Source: Oculatellaceae cyanobacterium bins.114 | GTDB taxonomy: Bacteria; Cyanobacteriota; Cyanobacteriia; Elainellales; Elainellaceae | DNA: 45,013 nucleotides | Assembly: GCA_033764315.1 (NCBI GenBank) | Contig: JANRJA010000122.1 | Coordinates: 1-45,013 of the forward strand | Direction: 5' to 3' | In this document: positions 3,038-12,826 of the stretch, one piece after another | Layout of the letters: each line of letters opens with the position of its first letter | How positions within the stretch are numbered: position 1 is the stretch's first letter | Position numbers and translations under genes: made by a program | The notes under the pieces: generated by a model | Seen by the model: the letters and a program-made list of their open reading frames with translations, nothing else | What the model was told of the DNA's origin: nothing | Databases searched by the model: none

Positions 3038-3745
3038 CTATAGCTCATCACAAATGCGTTGAAACGCCGCACCGGGATCTGGCGCTTGGGTAATTGGACG
3101 CCCGATCACAAGATAGTCTGCTCCTGCCTTGATCGCCGCACTGGGAGTGAGCGATCGCTGTTGATCCCCACTGTCTGCCCAGGTTGGACGCACTCCCGGA
3201 CAGACAAACAAGAACCCGTCGCCACAAACCTGTCGCAATTGAGCCACTTCTTGAGGAGAGCAGACCACCCCTGATAACTGACTTGCCTGTGCCAGCAATG
3301 CCATTTGCACTACGTAATCGGGTAACTCTAGGGGAATCTTTAGCTCAAACGCTAGTGCTCGCGAAGTCAAACTGGTGAGCAGTGTAATCCCTAACAATTG
3401 AGGAGGTGTCAGTCCGGCGGCGATCGCCCCCTCTTGAGCCGCCGTGTGGGCGGCGGTTAGTGCTGTGTGCCCTGCGGCAATGTGGACGGTCAACAAGTCC
3501 ACCCCAAATCGTCCAGCCGCTCGACAGGCTCCTGCCATCGTGTTGGGGATGTCGTGAAATTTGAGATCCAAAAAAATCCGCTTTTGTCTTTCTTGCAAGG
3601 CCGCTAAGACGGTTGAGCCTGAACTGACAAACAACTCTAAACCCACCTTCCAAAAAGACACCTGAGGCAATTGATCGATCAGGGCGATCGCCTCTGTAGC
3701 AGTCGAGACATCCAGTGGAACAATAATGCGATCGGATGGAGACAT
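3038..3745 (-). CDS. pyrF: Orotidine-5'-phosphate decarboxylase
   Basis: [12 protein letters not shown] active-site motif, PGVRP, DQQR, VIGRPI. Confidence 0.97.
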
Positions 3746-3817
3746 GGGAGGGTAAAGGAGAGAATAGAGATTGAGGGAGTCAGCTCTAGAGGGCTATGCA
3801 GGAGATTTTGCAGCAGA

Positions 3818-3835
3818 GACGCGATTTATCGCGTC
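3818..3835. repeat. REP-like palindrome, GACGCGATTAATCGCGTC family
   Basis: GACGCGATTTATCGCGTC; related copies at 11416, 14925, 36181, 37334. Confidence 0.8.
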
Positions 3836-3887
3836 TGTACAGGGAGAGGTGGCAATAGGGTCTGAATTTTGAACGGGAGGGTGACTG

Positions 3888-3935
3888 CTGACAATTAATC
3901 AACGACCAATGACCAATAACTAATGACCAATGACC
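3888..3935. repeat. Degenerate heptamer tandem repeat (STRR-like, CAATGAC)
   Basis: caacgac-caatgac-caataac-taatgac-caatgac. Confidence 0.7.
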
Positions 3936-3979
3936 GTTATCTCGTCATTTCCCAACTTCCCCATACCTATCCTTCATGA

Positions 3980-4056
3980 TAGTCCTCTAAAAGTCATGAT
4001 TTTTGAGTAAGGATGTGCCGCGCTCCGCGCGGCACATCCTTACTTGTTTAGGACTA
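3980..4056. repeat. 77-bp palindromic element, copy 2
   Basis: TAGTCCT...AGGACTA ends with central hairpin AGTAAGGATGTGCCGCGC-TCC-GCGCGGCACATCCTTACT; directly downstream of tyrS. Confidence 0.8.
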
Positions 4057-4070
4057 CCTCTTTCATTTCC

Positions 4071-5318
4071 CTAAACACGACTGACTAACCGCACAAATCG
4101 ATTTTTGCCGACTTGCAACACTTTGCCATTCAGGTCATCTCCAGAGTCAAACGTCAGGTCTACGTTATCCACGCGATCGCCATCTAGCTTCACGGCTCCC
4201 CCTTGAATTTGGCGTCGTCCGTCGCCACTGCTCTTACACAAGCCCGTCGCACTCAGCAAGTAAAACAACTTGACCGGAAATTGTATATCCGCCAAAGAAA
4301 ATTCAGGAACCGCATCGGCTTGTTTGGCATCTCCTTGAACCAGTGCCAGAGCTGCTTTTTGTGCCTCGATCGCCGCATCGTGTCCATGATATTGAGTCAC
4401 GACCTCAAGGGCTAGTAATTTTTGGCGATCGCGCGGGTTTTCGGGCAGTTGGTTGAGTGGCAAGTTAGTCAACAATTCAAAGTAGTCTTGAATCAGCGCA
4501 TCGGGCACCTTCTCTAATTTGGAATACATCGACAAGGCATCTTCGGTCAGTCCGACATAATTGCCCAAAGATTTCGACATTTTTTGAACGCCATCCGTTC
4601 CCACCAAAATGGGCATCAACAAACCAAATTGAGGACGTTGACTAAAGTGTCGTTGCAAATCGCGCCCAACCGCCAAATTAAACTTTTGGTCAGTGCCTCC
4701 TAATTCCACATCGGCTGCGAGTGCAACTGAGTCATAGCCCTGCATCAAGGGATACATAAACTCGTGCAAATAGATCGGCGTTTCTTTGACATAGCGTTCG
4801 GCAAACCCTTCTTTTGCCAACATTTGCCCAACAGTCGTCGTTGCCAGCAGTTCCAAAATGTCTGCCAGATTCAACTTCGATAACCACTCCGAGTTATAGC
4901 GAATCTCTAGCCGCCCTGGGGTGTCAAAGTCAAGAATGGGGCGCACTTGGTCAATATAGGTTTGAGCGTTTTCAGCGACTTGCTCAGACGTTAACTGCCG
5001 ACGAGCCTCTGATTTACCCGTCGGGTCGCCAATCCGGGCGGTGAAATCGCCAATCAACAAAATGGCCGTGTGTCCCGCGTCTTGAAAGGCTCTCAGTTTG
5101 CGGAAGACAATACTATGACCTAAGTGAATTTCTGAACCCGTGGGGTCGATGCCAAACTTGATACGCAAGGGGCGATCGCTTTTAGCAATGCGTTGTTCAA
5201 GATTTTCGTCAGGATTTTGGGAGTCGGGTTGATTGGGAAAAATTTCATGGGTGCCCCGATGCAACCAAGAAAACGATTCCGTTAAGTTTGATGGGTAATC
5301 CAAAGCCATACTTGGCAA
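4071..5318 (-). CDS. tyrS: Tyrosine--tRNA ligase
   Basis: HLGH (HIGH-type) and KMSKS motifs, [17 protein letters not shown]-terminal S4-like domain. Confidence 0.97.
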
Positions 5319-8954: not shown

Positions 8955-9287
8955 CTACCCTTGTTGCTGCCTCCGTCTCACAAAAGGGGCATAGTCGCCC
9001 AACCAAGCCGTTTTGGGGGACAGGGAGTAAAGCCACCGTTCAACCATTCCATACAAGATGCTTTTACGCCATATTCCCTGTTTGACCTTCCTCATATTTC
9101 TCTGGGCAAATTGATAAAGAGCGTCTACAGATAGATCTGAAATGACATTGGCATTGAGGTCATGACTCATCTGTTGTCGTAGCTCAAGATGAGCTTGCAA
9201 CATTGTCGCAAGAGGCAGATAAAGCAAGATTGCGCAGCCAAATGTGGCAAGATACGTAACGATAGAAATAGTGGATCGAGTTCTCAT
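8955..9287 (-). CDS. Hypothetical protein with N-terminal membrane anchor
   Basis: ATG preceded by GAGGT; hydrophobic residues 7-31. Confidence 0.5.
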   Translation of the reverse strand: MRTRSTISIVTYLATFGCAILLYLPLATMLQAHLELRQQMSHDLNANVISDLSVDALYQFAQRNMRKVKQGIWRKSILYGMVERWLYSLSPKTAWLGDYAPFVRRRQQQG

Positions 9288-9401
9288 GTCACTACCTCAG
9301 GAGGAAGCTTCCTTGTCAGGATTCCCCCAGGTTAAGAACATAATTTCCTTCTGATAAAAAAGCTTTTGTTTATTGTGCGATGCGATCGCGGAGGTGACTC
9401 A

Positions 9402-9716
9402 ATGCTTGATTTTCTCAATCCGATTCTGGGGCGTAACCCTGACCGGGTCAAAGCTAATGTTGAGATCTATACCTGGCAAACCTGCCCCTACTGCATTCGG
9501 GCCAAATTACTGTTGTGGTGGAAAGGTGTCAACTACACCGAATACAAAATTGATGGAGACGGGGGTGCACGAGTGAGGATGGCAGAACGAGCCAATGGGC
9601 GGCGTAGCGTTCCCCAAATTTTTATTAACAATCAACACATTGGCGGCTGTGATGAGTTGTATGCCCTGGACACACAGGGGCAACTTGACCCGTTGTTAGC
9701 CGAAGCAACGGTTTAG
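9402..9716 (+). CDS. grxC: Glutaredoxin 3
   Basis: CPYC, SVPQIFI, IGGCD; GGAGG at 9390-9394 supports ATG 9402. Confidence 0.92.
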   Translation: MLDFLNPILGRNPDRVKANVEIYTWQTCPYCIRAKLLLWWKGVNYTEYKIDGDGGARVRMAERANGRRSVPQIFINNQHIGGCDELYALDTQGQLDPLLAEATV

Positions 9717-9722
9717 CCAAAC

Positions 9723-10613
9723 GTGACCCAATCTTTGATTTTGGTGACGGGGCCAGCGCGATCGGGCAAGAGCGAATGGGCGGAGCAGTTGGCAACCCAA
9801 TCAGGTCGAGCTGTGATCTATGTGGCGACGGCTCAGACTGATCCCACCGATGCAGAGTGGCAGATGCGCATTGCCAAACATCAACAACGTCGCCCCAAAA
9901 GCTGGCAAACGCTGCATGTGCCGATCGCCCTAACTGAGGCACTCTATCAAGCCAAAGCTGAGGAGTGCTGGCTGATTGACTCCCTGGGCACCTGGCTCGC
10001 CAATCTGTTGGAACAGGATGAATCAACCTGGCAGGTCACGGTGCAGGCATTACTAGAGGCTTTGAGGCAAGTCCCTGGCACAACAGTTGTGGTTGCCGAA
10101 GAAACGGGCTGGGGAGTAGTGCCTGCCTATCCGATGGGACGCTTGTTTCGCGATCGCTTGGGTGATCTGACTCGACGCATTGGGGCGATCGCTGATAGTG
10201 TCTATCTCGTCACCGCCGGACATGCCCTCAACCTGAGCCAATTGGGTATTCCGTTAAAGGCAGAGTTAGGCGGCTTCACCATGAGCAAGAGTGACAAGGA
10301 AATCGCGCGTCGGACTGCGGCAGCTCTAGCTGCCATCAAGCAGTTGTTGAGCGAGGAAGATTCTGCCGTCTCTATGTTCGTGTCGCATCACGTCGAAGAA
10401 CTCGATGCGGCTTACTGGGAGAAACACGCCAGTACCGCGAAGCCGTCTCCGAAACAGGTCGTGGATCTTCTCGAACTGCGATCTTATTGGAGCGGCGATG
10501 GCGATGATGGCGACGTCTTCGACTTCACGCTTCCCGGTGACGTGACCGACTACGTGATGTCCGTGCGTTTTGACGAAGACGGCGAAGTTCAAGACGTGGA
10601 CATGGAAAGCTGA
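9723..10613 (+). CDS. cobU: Adenosylcobinamide kinase/guanylyltransferase with an in-frame foreign C-terminal DUF2004-like domain
   Basis: GPARSGKS P-loop, RIAKHQQRRP, EETGWGVVP, RLFRDRLG; CobU similarity ends near aa 180, then an acidic 110-aa domain follows. Confidence 0.9.
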   Translation: MTQSLILVTGPARSGKSEWAEQLATQSGRAVIYVATAQTDPTDAEWQMRIAKHQQRRPKSWQTLHVPIALTEALYQAKAEECWLIDSLGTWLANLLEQDESTWQVTVQALLEALRQVPGTTVVVAEETGWGVVPAYPMGRLFRDRLGDLTRRIGAIADSVYLVTAGHALNLSQLGIPLKAELGGFTMSKSDKEIARRTAAALAAIKQLLSEEDSAVSMFVSHHVEELDAAYWEKHASTAKPSPKQVVDLLELRSYWSGDGDDGDVFDFTLPGDVTDYVMSVRFDEDGEVQDVDMES

Positions 10614-10641
10614 CTACCAGACGCCTAACCTACCGTTAGAT
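10265..10641 (+). mobile_element. Integron gene-cassette-like insert: own ATG 10281 to TGA 10613, DUF2004-like protein
   Basis: Core site GTTAGGC at 10265-10271 just before the ATG and the exactly complementary inverse core site GCCTAAC at 10623-10629 just after the stop; attC truncated. Confidence 0.65.
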
Positions 10642-10963
10642 CCTTAACCTTTGTTCCAGATTTGGCCGCTCTATCAGCGAGCGAAAGTCGCTAGCATTGA
10701 GACATAAACTAAATTAATTCATAGGCTAGTTAAAAACTCACTTAAACTTGAGTTTGATCAATGGCTCATCAGTTCGATAGCCCCGTTTCGCCTTAAATCC
10801 TCTCCTCCGAACGAGCCATTGTCTGTCTAGCGATGCATGCTCTGTTGAAACAGGTGTAACACAATCTTAAAAAATCTATAGATTCTGCAAACTTTAGCTT
10901 TTATTTAGCTTAAAGTATCTCACCAGCTGAGTTGCAGACCAAGTCATAAACTGAGTTGACGCT

Positions 10964-11410
10964 ATGGCATCCCCAGACGAAGTAAGACGTTATCTGGCCT
11001 ACTGGTTTCAGTTAGGCAAGAAGTTAATTGTTGAAAATCAAGAAGAACTGTTGCCCCGCCCAGTGCTGTGGGGCGATCGCTATAGCCCTGAGTTTGAGAA
11101 GTGCTGGCAACGGGTCATTGCTCAAGGTGGGCAAAACGTCCATTTAGAGGGCACCAACCAAACCCTGGCTGAGTTGCTTAGCTCTGCCTGGGAAATTAGC
11201 CCTTGTGCTCGTTGTGAGATGCCTGTGCCCACACTAGACCTTGGTGTTAGAGACCCCCTCTGTCCTTGTTCTGATCTACCTTTTTGGCCTGATACAGAGA
11301 GTCCTCAACCGCGTGAACCGATTAGCAATCAAGATCATCTGACTCAAATTCGCGATCGCCTGTTGCGGGTGCAGAAATCTAATCCTTCAGGGCAGTCTAG
11401 AGCCAGCTAA
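10964..11410 (+). CDS. Conserved cyanobacterial hypothetical protein with Cys motifs
   Basis: YLAYWFQLGK, CARC, CPCSDL motifs. Confidence 0.75.
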   Translation: MASPDEVRRYLAYWFQLGKKLIVENQEELLPRPVLWGDRYSPEFEKCWQRVIAQGGQNVHLEGTNQTLAELLSSAWEISPCARCEMPVPTLDLGVRDPLCPCSDLPFWPDTESPQPREPISNQDHLTQIRDRLLRVQKSNPSGQSRAS

Positions 11411-12226: not shown

Positions 12227-12587
12227 GGAATTACTTCATCGAAGGGAAATTGAAAGCTTGAGTCAACACAATGCCCTGACGGAAATAAAACAAATATTAG
12301 AGCTCTTTCAAATTAGAGGGTTTGAATTGAGATGAATCGGGGCAAAGCACCCACTCACCTCACCTTGAAAGAAGACTATCGGAACGGTTTTATGTGGGCA
12401 TATTGTAATAGGTGTTGCTCCTTGAGTCACTACTTTTTGCGACTTTAAAGAAAAAATTTCTGCTTTGTCTCTTCAGTAGCCCACATTACACGAACAATCC
12501 GATCGATGATACAGGATCAACGTAACTTGTAACCTCTCTAACACAATTCCTTAATTAGTCTTAGTTTAAACCTCTCCAAAAAATAAA

Positions 12588-12826
12588 GGATGAAGGATAA
12601 AGGATAAAGGCTGAGGGATGAGGGATAAAGGCTGAGGGATGAGGGATAAAGGCTGAGGGATGAGGGATGAAGGATAAAGGCTGAGGGATAAAGGATAAAG
12701 GCTGAGGGATGAAGGATAAAGGCTGAGGGATAAAGGATAAAGGCTGAGGGATGAAGGATAAAAGTAAGAAAAACCCTCTATCCTTCTCATCCATCAGCCT
12801 TCAGCCTTCAGCCTTTTACCTTCAGC
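12588..12826. repeat. Heptamer tandem-repeat tract with a shorter inverted arm
   Basis: About 25 units of GGATAAA/GGCTGAG/GGATGAG/GGATGAA (12588-12762), then complementary TCAGCCT units near the sir stop. Confidence 0.9.

Follow-up and report, generated by a model that had tools for sequence, protein, structure and literature searches.

How did a cobalamin-pathway gene come to run on into a 110-residue reading frame that lies between what look like the core sites of an integron gene cassette? This question is raised by the cobU gene in the stretch of cyanobacterial DNA analysed here, 45,013 nucleotides in all, which we call the window. An initial annotation of the locus had proposed that a foreign integron cassette lies stranded in frame in cobU, and that proposal is supported by the boundaries of the segment, its attC-associated homologs, and the empty site in relatives. 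In our judgement the segment 10266-10635 is very probably an integron cassette, inserted at the secondary site G/TTAGAT three codons before the cobU stop codon (here and below the slash marks the crossover point).

Limits of the inserted segment and its homologs

A single open frame of 296 aa extends from 9723 to 10613 in the open reading frame listing, stop-free from cobU into the passenger ORF. Native cobU, for adenosylcobinamide kinase / adenosylcobinamide-phosphate guanylyltransferase, occupies 9723..10265 on the plus strand (residues 1-181), as do all the features that follow, and its last base, G10265, would be the host half of the left crossover. The left junction is a hybrid core site, G/TTAGGC (10265..10271), in which the G belongs to cobU and TTAGGC to the 5' end of the cassette. 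The inserted cassette of 370 bp (10266..10635) is made up of a 15-nt leader, an ORF and an attC remnant. The leader (10266..10280) contains no stop and reads as the linker L-G-G-F-T in the cobU frame, and it is followed by the passenger ORF (10281..10613), with 110 codons at 10281-10610 and the stop TGA at 10611-10613. Further on is R'', the inverse core site GCCTAAC of the cassette attC (10623..10629), complementary to the TTAGGC at the cassette 5' end, and then the collapsed remainder of the attC (10630..10641), which consists of a 5-nt spacer, CTACC, and a hybrid R', G/TTAGAT, where TTAGAT is host DNA. This core-like site GTTAGAT lies at 10635-10641, and the displaced 3' end of cobU, TTA GAT CCT plus the stop TAA (10645-10647), covers 10636..10647.

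These details had for the most part been reported before, and re-reading the sequence bore them out: GTTAGGC at 10265-10271 is followed after 9 nt by the ATG at 10281, and GCCTAAC comes 9 nt past the passenger stop, followed by the CTACC spacer and GTTAGAT. The 110-aa ORF is acidic as described (25 D+E versus 10 K+R, pI 4.25) and the C-terminal peptide that had been quoted is present. The chimeric reading frame held up as well, as one 296-aa frame through the junction, predicted from the sequence, and the junction peptide of the predicted chimera would read ...LKAELGGFTMSK... The composition of the insert (55.7% GC) does not set it apart from cobU (56.5%); both are above the genome mean of 47.6%, and the composition is not informative.

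The passenger has 87 homologs, nearly all of them stand-alone proteins of about 111-113 aa with the same start Met. It aligns end to end with these, and keeps 13 of 13 invariant columns and 22 nearly invariant ones, so that by its sequence it belongs, at full length, to a conserved family of small acidic proteins. The expectation of non-cyanobacterial, attC-flanked matches was correct: the best matches in named genomes are from Planctomycetota, Verrucomicrobiota and beta/gamma-Proteobacteria, and many homologs are flanked by attC. The 80 genome loci with homologs that we collected come from Planctomycetota, Verrucomicrobiota, beta- and gamma-Proteobacteria and one Acaryochloris. The protein family is rare in the class to which the window belongs, with members in 3 of 300 other genomes (44-57% identity over the matched parts), and within the window's own taxonomic family it was found in none of 25 genomes; the host genome has one copy.

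The label DUF2004-like, given to the passenger initially, is not supported by the Pfam and NCBIfam models used: a Pfam scan of 32 family members gave nothing significant, and none of them matches a DUF2004 model at E<=1. The DUF2004 name does appear on homologs in two public sources and on one Atlas cluster, as a name only. None of the four family members among the five proteins scanned with NCBIfam matches any of its models, and the PADLOC defence-system models gave no significant match to the passenger. An AlphaFold2 model of the passenger (pLDDT 89.9) predicts four helices packed on a four-stranded sheet. The PDB profile search with the passenger reached a best E of 0.04 (S-layer fragments), and a Foldseek search of the PDB with the model a best E of 0.06, neither of them significant. 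A wide search with VIA-align returned generic cystatin/NTF2-like alpha+beta folds with a best Z of 6.6, which is under the level that the tool treats as meaningful, and in the ESM Atlas the passenger falls only in that resource's own unnamed clusters.

Nucleotide alignments with the closest homologous loci place the left limit of the segment to the base. Similarity to L103, L104, L102 and L022 starts exactly at G/TTAGGC and continues through GCCTAACC, so that the matched span takes in the 15-nt leader, the ORF, the 9-nt trailer and the R'' GCCTAAC(C). Identity over this span is 74-86%, at 309/359 for L103 (86%, the closest), 298/362 for L104, 295/362 for L102 and 269/362 for L022. In the 25 nt upstream of the junction, identity is 4/25 for L103, 4/25 for L104, 8/25 for L102 and 3/25 for L022. 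The bases before G/TT belong to cobU in the window; in the cassette loci they form the 3' end of the previous attC. The 16 nt formed by GTTAGGC and the leader are identical in L103, a metagenome locus whose protein is 84% identical, and in L022, from a Phycisphaeraceae genome (67% aa identity); one to five base differences are seen in L104, L102, L114 and L105. These alignments establish the cassette ancestry of the segment and its exact limits at the level of sequence.

Two of these loci deserve a separate remark. L105 and L114, both from metagenomes and with 76-77% aa identity, have degenerate cores upstream (ATTAGGC or GTTTGGC), GCCAGC in the place of R'' and no match to the attC model described below; the contig of L114 is 590 kb long. 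Both have the appearance of additional chromosomal copies of this cassette in decay.

To the right, the R'' 9 nt past the stop is also found in L104, L102 and L022. After R'' the relatives have an attC of ~100-128 nt that ends in ..TAC/GTTA.., whereas the window has only CTACC before G/TTAGAT. This spacer resembles the 3' end of the relatives' attC, for example ..CCTAC/GTTAT in L104.

For the detection of attC sites we built a covariance model from 15 sites; the host genome supplied five, and the other ten came from five of the homolog loci. In the consensus structure 19 pairs are formed, of which 14 show compensatory changes, and the R''-L'' arm contains unpaired bases. The DNA around 80 genome and 80 metagenome homologs was scanned with it. 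In 14/80 genome loci and 22/80 metagenome loci the homolog gene has an attC no more than 100 nt away, so that the condition named in advance against the cassette reading, homologs never associated with attC, does not hold. At least one attC was found anywhere in the locus in 18/80 genome loci (57 sites) and 23/80 metagenome loci (42 sites), and none with this model in 62/80 and 57/80 respectively. As an internal control, all 99 of the 99 matches are on the strand of the homolog gene and 0 on the other strand. Homologs in L061, L022 and L088 lie between two attC sites, and among the five closest relatives L102, L103 and L104 have an adjacent one. Few types of site went into the model, and the true adjacency counts are therefore at least as high as these.

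At the locus itself the same model finds no significant attC in the window (9.5 bits, E=3.4). What is left is a remnant of 19 bp (10623-10641), aligned as R'' and R' with 84 of 98 model positions missing between them. A complete attC is a hairpin of R''-L''-loop-L'-R' with extrahelical bases, and of these parts only R''-5 nt-R' is present; nor is there a covariance-detectable attC beside the coding sequence, by which a SALIN is defined. The locus is, as read from its sequence, the remnant of a cassette and not a mobile cassette, and it is probably both immobile and invisible to attC-based finders. Since the attC is not detectable as such, the right junction rests on 12 nt.

One candidate in the window scored higher, at 12728-12821 on the minus strand (19.7 bits); it lies in a tandem repeat, has no AAC/GTT cores and looks like a false positive. 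The repeat belongs to two overlapping ORFs of heptad tandem repeats (..SFIPQPL..) at 12561-12821 on the minus strand, just downstream of a sulfite-reductase-like gene. A strict regular-expression and folding scan of the whole genome for attC returned mostly coding-sequence noise, and the covariance model was used instead.

The foreign segment might have arrived by another route, through illegitimate or micro-homology recombination of a linear array fragment, with the R''-R' motif a coincidence. This alternative draws on the lack of an intact attC at the locus and on the statistics of the motifs. In the window, GTTRRRY is followed 150-1500 nt further on by its exact complement 12 times, and 50 shuffles gave 6.7 +/- 3.5, so that core-site pairs alone are not significantly enriched, and R''-short-R' motifs are frequent by chance: genome-wide we counted 72 collapsed R''-3..8 nt-R' motifs and 94 for the inverted control. 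There is no genome-wide enrichment of collapsed attC remnants, and a general class of collapsed attC is unsupported in the host genome. The motif evidence alone is weak and the case rests on the comparative evidence, in which homology that starts exactly at the G/TT crossover point lifts the cassette far above chance. The left limit matches to the base the boundary that the cassette has in arrays from different phyla, the right end CTACC/GTTAG is like the 3' end of the relatives' attC, and the deduced target is a perfect GTTRRRY. Together the left limit, the right end and the target are better explained by the known chemistry of the crossover than by random breakage, and we consider entry by such another route very unlikely.

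Integron machinery in the host genome

The initial annotation had remarked that no integrase is present in the window, which is correct, yet an intact integron integrase is encoded elsewhere in the genome, and the TIGR02249 search together with the attC covariance model revealed a complete integron. In the whole genome TIGR02249 has matches on contigs C16, C35, C150 and C155 only. The intI gene at C16:183-1124 scores 482 bits against a cut-off of 265 and is uninterrupted over its full length. C16 begins with 141 nt that are also the end of the reverse-complemented C183, a contig overlap that links intI to an array. C183 carries an attI-like core, GTTAGCC, and five cassettes, each bounded by an attC of 86-87 nt, and in all five the 5' TTRRRY is complementary to the cassette's own R''. 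Most ORFs of C183 point away from intI, as in the classical arrangement. That this genome has an integron is thereby established from its sequence.

Some features of this region are recorded in their own right. The contigs C16, C112 and C183 form a branch in the assembly graph, where the attI-proximal 141 nt lead either to the intact intI (C16) or to a transposase-like ORF (C112), the latter branch following a one-base difference; this suggests that the front end of the integron is present in two copies or two variants. In the C183 array, reading by eye picked out two toxin-antitoxin-like gene pairs (about 1440-1970 and 3720-4430), one PIN/VapC-like, running against the direction of the other cassettes, and one RelE/ParE-like.

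The attC model has 34 matches in the genome at E<=1, and 29 at E<1e-3. The latter are spread over 18 contigs, which indicates that cassettes off the platform are common in this host. The host attCs are ~86 nt long and AT-richer, whereas those of the closest relatives of the cassette are roughly 100-128 nt and GC-rich. By this comparison the cassette probably came from elsewhere, and its capture by the host's own IntI is plausible.

cobU and its empty site in relatives

The host part of the chimera is a full-length CobU. Pfam PF02283 matches residues 6-171 over profile positions 1-168 of 168 (1.3e-57, 194.4 bits versus a cut-off of 27), and NCBIfam NF004469 matches CobU with 224.6 bits versus a cut-off of 161; Pfam has no significant match on the last 110 residues of the 296-aa protein. 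The whole genome contains one match to cobU only. The CobU of a same-genus genome, G001, is 79% identical over residues 1-180.

In relatives the 3' end of cobU is where the cassette reading would place it. With the 296-aa protein as query, cobU was found in 30/30 relatives and the last 110 residues were matched in none; three matches that run beyond residue 188 cross stop codons. The comparison of cobU 3' ends that the initial annotation had called for came out in favour of its proposal, the genes of relatives ending at about residue 180. The CobU of G001 ends in ...LKP and the stop, and its gene has the same neighbours as in the window: upstream a gene for a glutaredoxin-like protein, downstream the 'MASPDEV...' gene. 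In the pairwise alignment with G001 the host homology continues to the end of cobU, and it resumes at ~10640 and goes on to the next gene.

When 10266-10635 is removed in silico, ..GCA GAG rejoins TTA GAT CCT TAA in frame. Read in this way, the CobU that preceded the insertion ended in ...AELDP, and its stop is the one that now lies at 10645-10647. The claim that the cassette had removed the stop codon of cobU has to be amended accordingly: the stop was not simply lost, and it is right that it no longer ends the frame, as the last three codons and the TAA (10645-10647) have been displaced downstream.

G001 has an insert of its own, of ~230 bp, directly after the cobU stop and at the cassette's spot (L003, 1270-1497, minus strand); it contains inverted repeats of the MITE-like kind and a strong GC hairpin. 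It seems that the 3' end of cobU readily accommodates insertions. Elsewhere on L003 of this genome (2900-3400), downstream of a conserved 107-aa gene, there is a long tandem repeat array of the GGTCAATGG type together with an inverted copy.

The alignment with G001 also bears on the integrity of the contig. A fragment of a cassette, from another organism or from the host's own array, could have been wrongly spliced into the cobU contig during assembly, and this is an assembly for which such an error has to be considered, fragmented into 251 contigs, 90.7% complete and with graph branching in the region of the host integron. An error of this kind would, however, need two mis-joins 370 bp apart, each exactly at G/TT, which must also leave the host sequence unbroken and alignable with G001 to the left and right. 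The passenger is present once in the genome, so there is no repeat to confuse the assembler, and the collapsed attC is unlike every array attC in the genome. We regard a chimera of assembly as more improbable still than entry by a route other than integron recombination. That the extension is an old functional domain native to the CobU of this lineage, as the open frame and the closeness in GC of insert and cobU would allow, has next to no likelihood given an extension in 0/30 relatives, no other protein joining CobU to the 110-aa domain among the 162-518-aa proteins of a 5.8-billion-protein collection apart from the window's own, a conserved Met start and leader common to stand-alone cassette genes, and a displaced cobU stop that is still recognisable downstream.

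Insertion of an integron cassette into cobU is therefore the reading that we retain, and the empty site in relatives and the restored gene establish the insertion at the level of the DNA.

Proposed route of insertion and known systems

In the mechanism that we propose, an integron integrase, perhaps the host's own IntI, would have recombined the attC of a free circular cassette with the fortuitous core-like GTTAGAT in cobU. The crossover would have taken place between G and TT, that is by the secondary-site or 'attG' route. The deduced target GAG/TTAGAT fits GTTRRRY and also the 5'-GWT-3' attG consensus; the CRGM right-hand motif of the E. coli attG hotspots is absent at the target, which has TCCT instead.

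The geometry of the left junction governs what would be translated. Since the host G occupies the third position of its codon and no stop interrupts the 15-nt leader, the passenger ORF falls in the frame of cobU, and ribosomes on cobU must consequently read to the passenger TGA. The product would be CobU(1-181)-LGGFT-passenger(110 aa), and a free 110-aa protein may also arise from the passenger's own ATG. A consensus scan of 9200-11100 found no promoter-like site on the plus strand and no terminator-like site. As a promoterless unit, the cassette would ride on the grx-cobU transcript, and its co-transcription with cobU is plausible from the layout of the genes.

The interior of the attC, the L''-loop-L' hairpin of about 80 nt, would have been lost at or after the insertion to leave R''-5 nt-R', after which excision of the cassette should no longer be possible. 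The loss could reasonably be put down to slippage across the hairpin. The complete CobU domain and the retention of all invariant positions of the passenger fit an event that is tolerated or recent. The fusion may be made, with a CobU part that could still be active, and the passenger might be of benefit to the cell.

A wider reading would be that secondary-site capture by integrons is a natural route of domain accretion on core enzymes, one that leaves attC-less 'fossil' cassettes behind, and that the CobU-passenger chimera is a retained, functional two-domain protein and not a neutral accident. In such a scheme the hairpin could be lost, for instance, when replication skips the folded hairpin while the attC x attG junction is resolved. 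We offer this wider reading as a speculation that is rather unlikely to be right. If it were true, tools based on attC would miss the fossils and the integron footprint in genomes, cyanobacteria included, would be underestimated.

Insertion of cassettes at secondary sites is already documented, and the mechanism proposed for cobU is an ordinary one for integrons, with nothing new in it. Insertion at attG sites is described as efficient and as directed to a GWT target (Loot et al., bioRxiv 10.1101/2022.09.11.507474), and Cyanobacteria are reported to encode integrons, with the added suggestion that CALIN may arise via secondary-site integration (Cury et al. 2016, PMC4889954). As far as these sources describe them, attG insertions, SALIN and CALIN are like the present case in that a lone cassette lies off any platform, the crossover is at G/WT and the IntI is encoded elsewhere in the genome; cassettes of the attG/SALIN type are likewise expressed only if they have landed behind a host promoter. 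By the definition given there a SALIN has a detectable attC, whereas the 19 bp to which the attC has shrunk in cobU would escape calling. The cobU case also differs from the attG cases described in that the insertion is inside a housekeeping ORF, with an in-frame protein fusion as its predicted outcome; in the main text of the attG preprint (bioRxiv 10.1101/2022.09.11.507474) the words 'fusion' and 'in frame' are absent.

Fusion of cassettes has been described in another setting. In class 1 arrays, partial or total loss of attC gives rise to fused, immobile cassettes, an outcome that is called rare (PMC4670013). The resemblance to cobU, within what that account covers, is that loss of attC immobilises the cassette and that reading frames can be fused. 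There, however, the partners are two neighbouring cassettes in the class 1 array of a clinical isolate, while here the partner is a chromosomal gene of core metabolism, and the fusion would come from the geometry of the insertion at the 5' end rather than from loss of attC at the 3' end.

Compared with other members of the CobU/CobP family (PF02283, NF004469), the N-terminal 181 residues of the chimera are full-length with an intact P-loop, like theirs, and the 115-residue foreign C-terminal extension occurs in no other member searched. In the titles and abstracts of the literature that we searched, no protein fusion of a cassette to a housekeeping gene is described, which is not to claim that none is in print.

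A further natural precedent is a resistance cassette. In plasmid RSF1010 / pIE723, Recchia and Hall (1995) reportedly found the aadB cassette inserted precisely into a secondary site whose junction has GTT. That case too is a natural single cassette at a non-att site; it is said to differ in being on a plasmid, in carrying a resistance gene with an intact 59-base element, and in having no protein fusion.

Set beside these systems, the cobU locus is a clean, base-resolved natural example of a cassette inserted outside an integron. Such insertion is efficient in the laboratory, and in genomes it is documented mainly through SALINs that bear an attC. To this the locus adds a cyanobacterium-type host with an active-looking integron, a single-copy gene of the cobalamin pathway as the landing gene, and a predicted chimera that is obligatory. 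It also illustrates that DNA derived from a cassette can be recognised without an attC, by the homology of its leader and R'', and this suggests a way to find hidden insertions.
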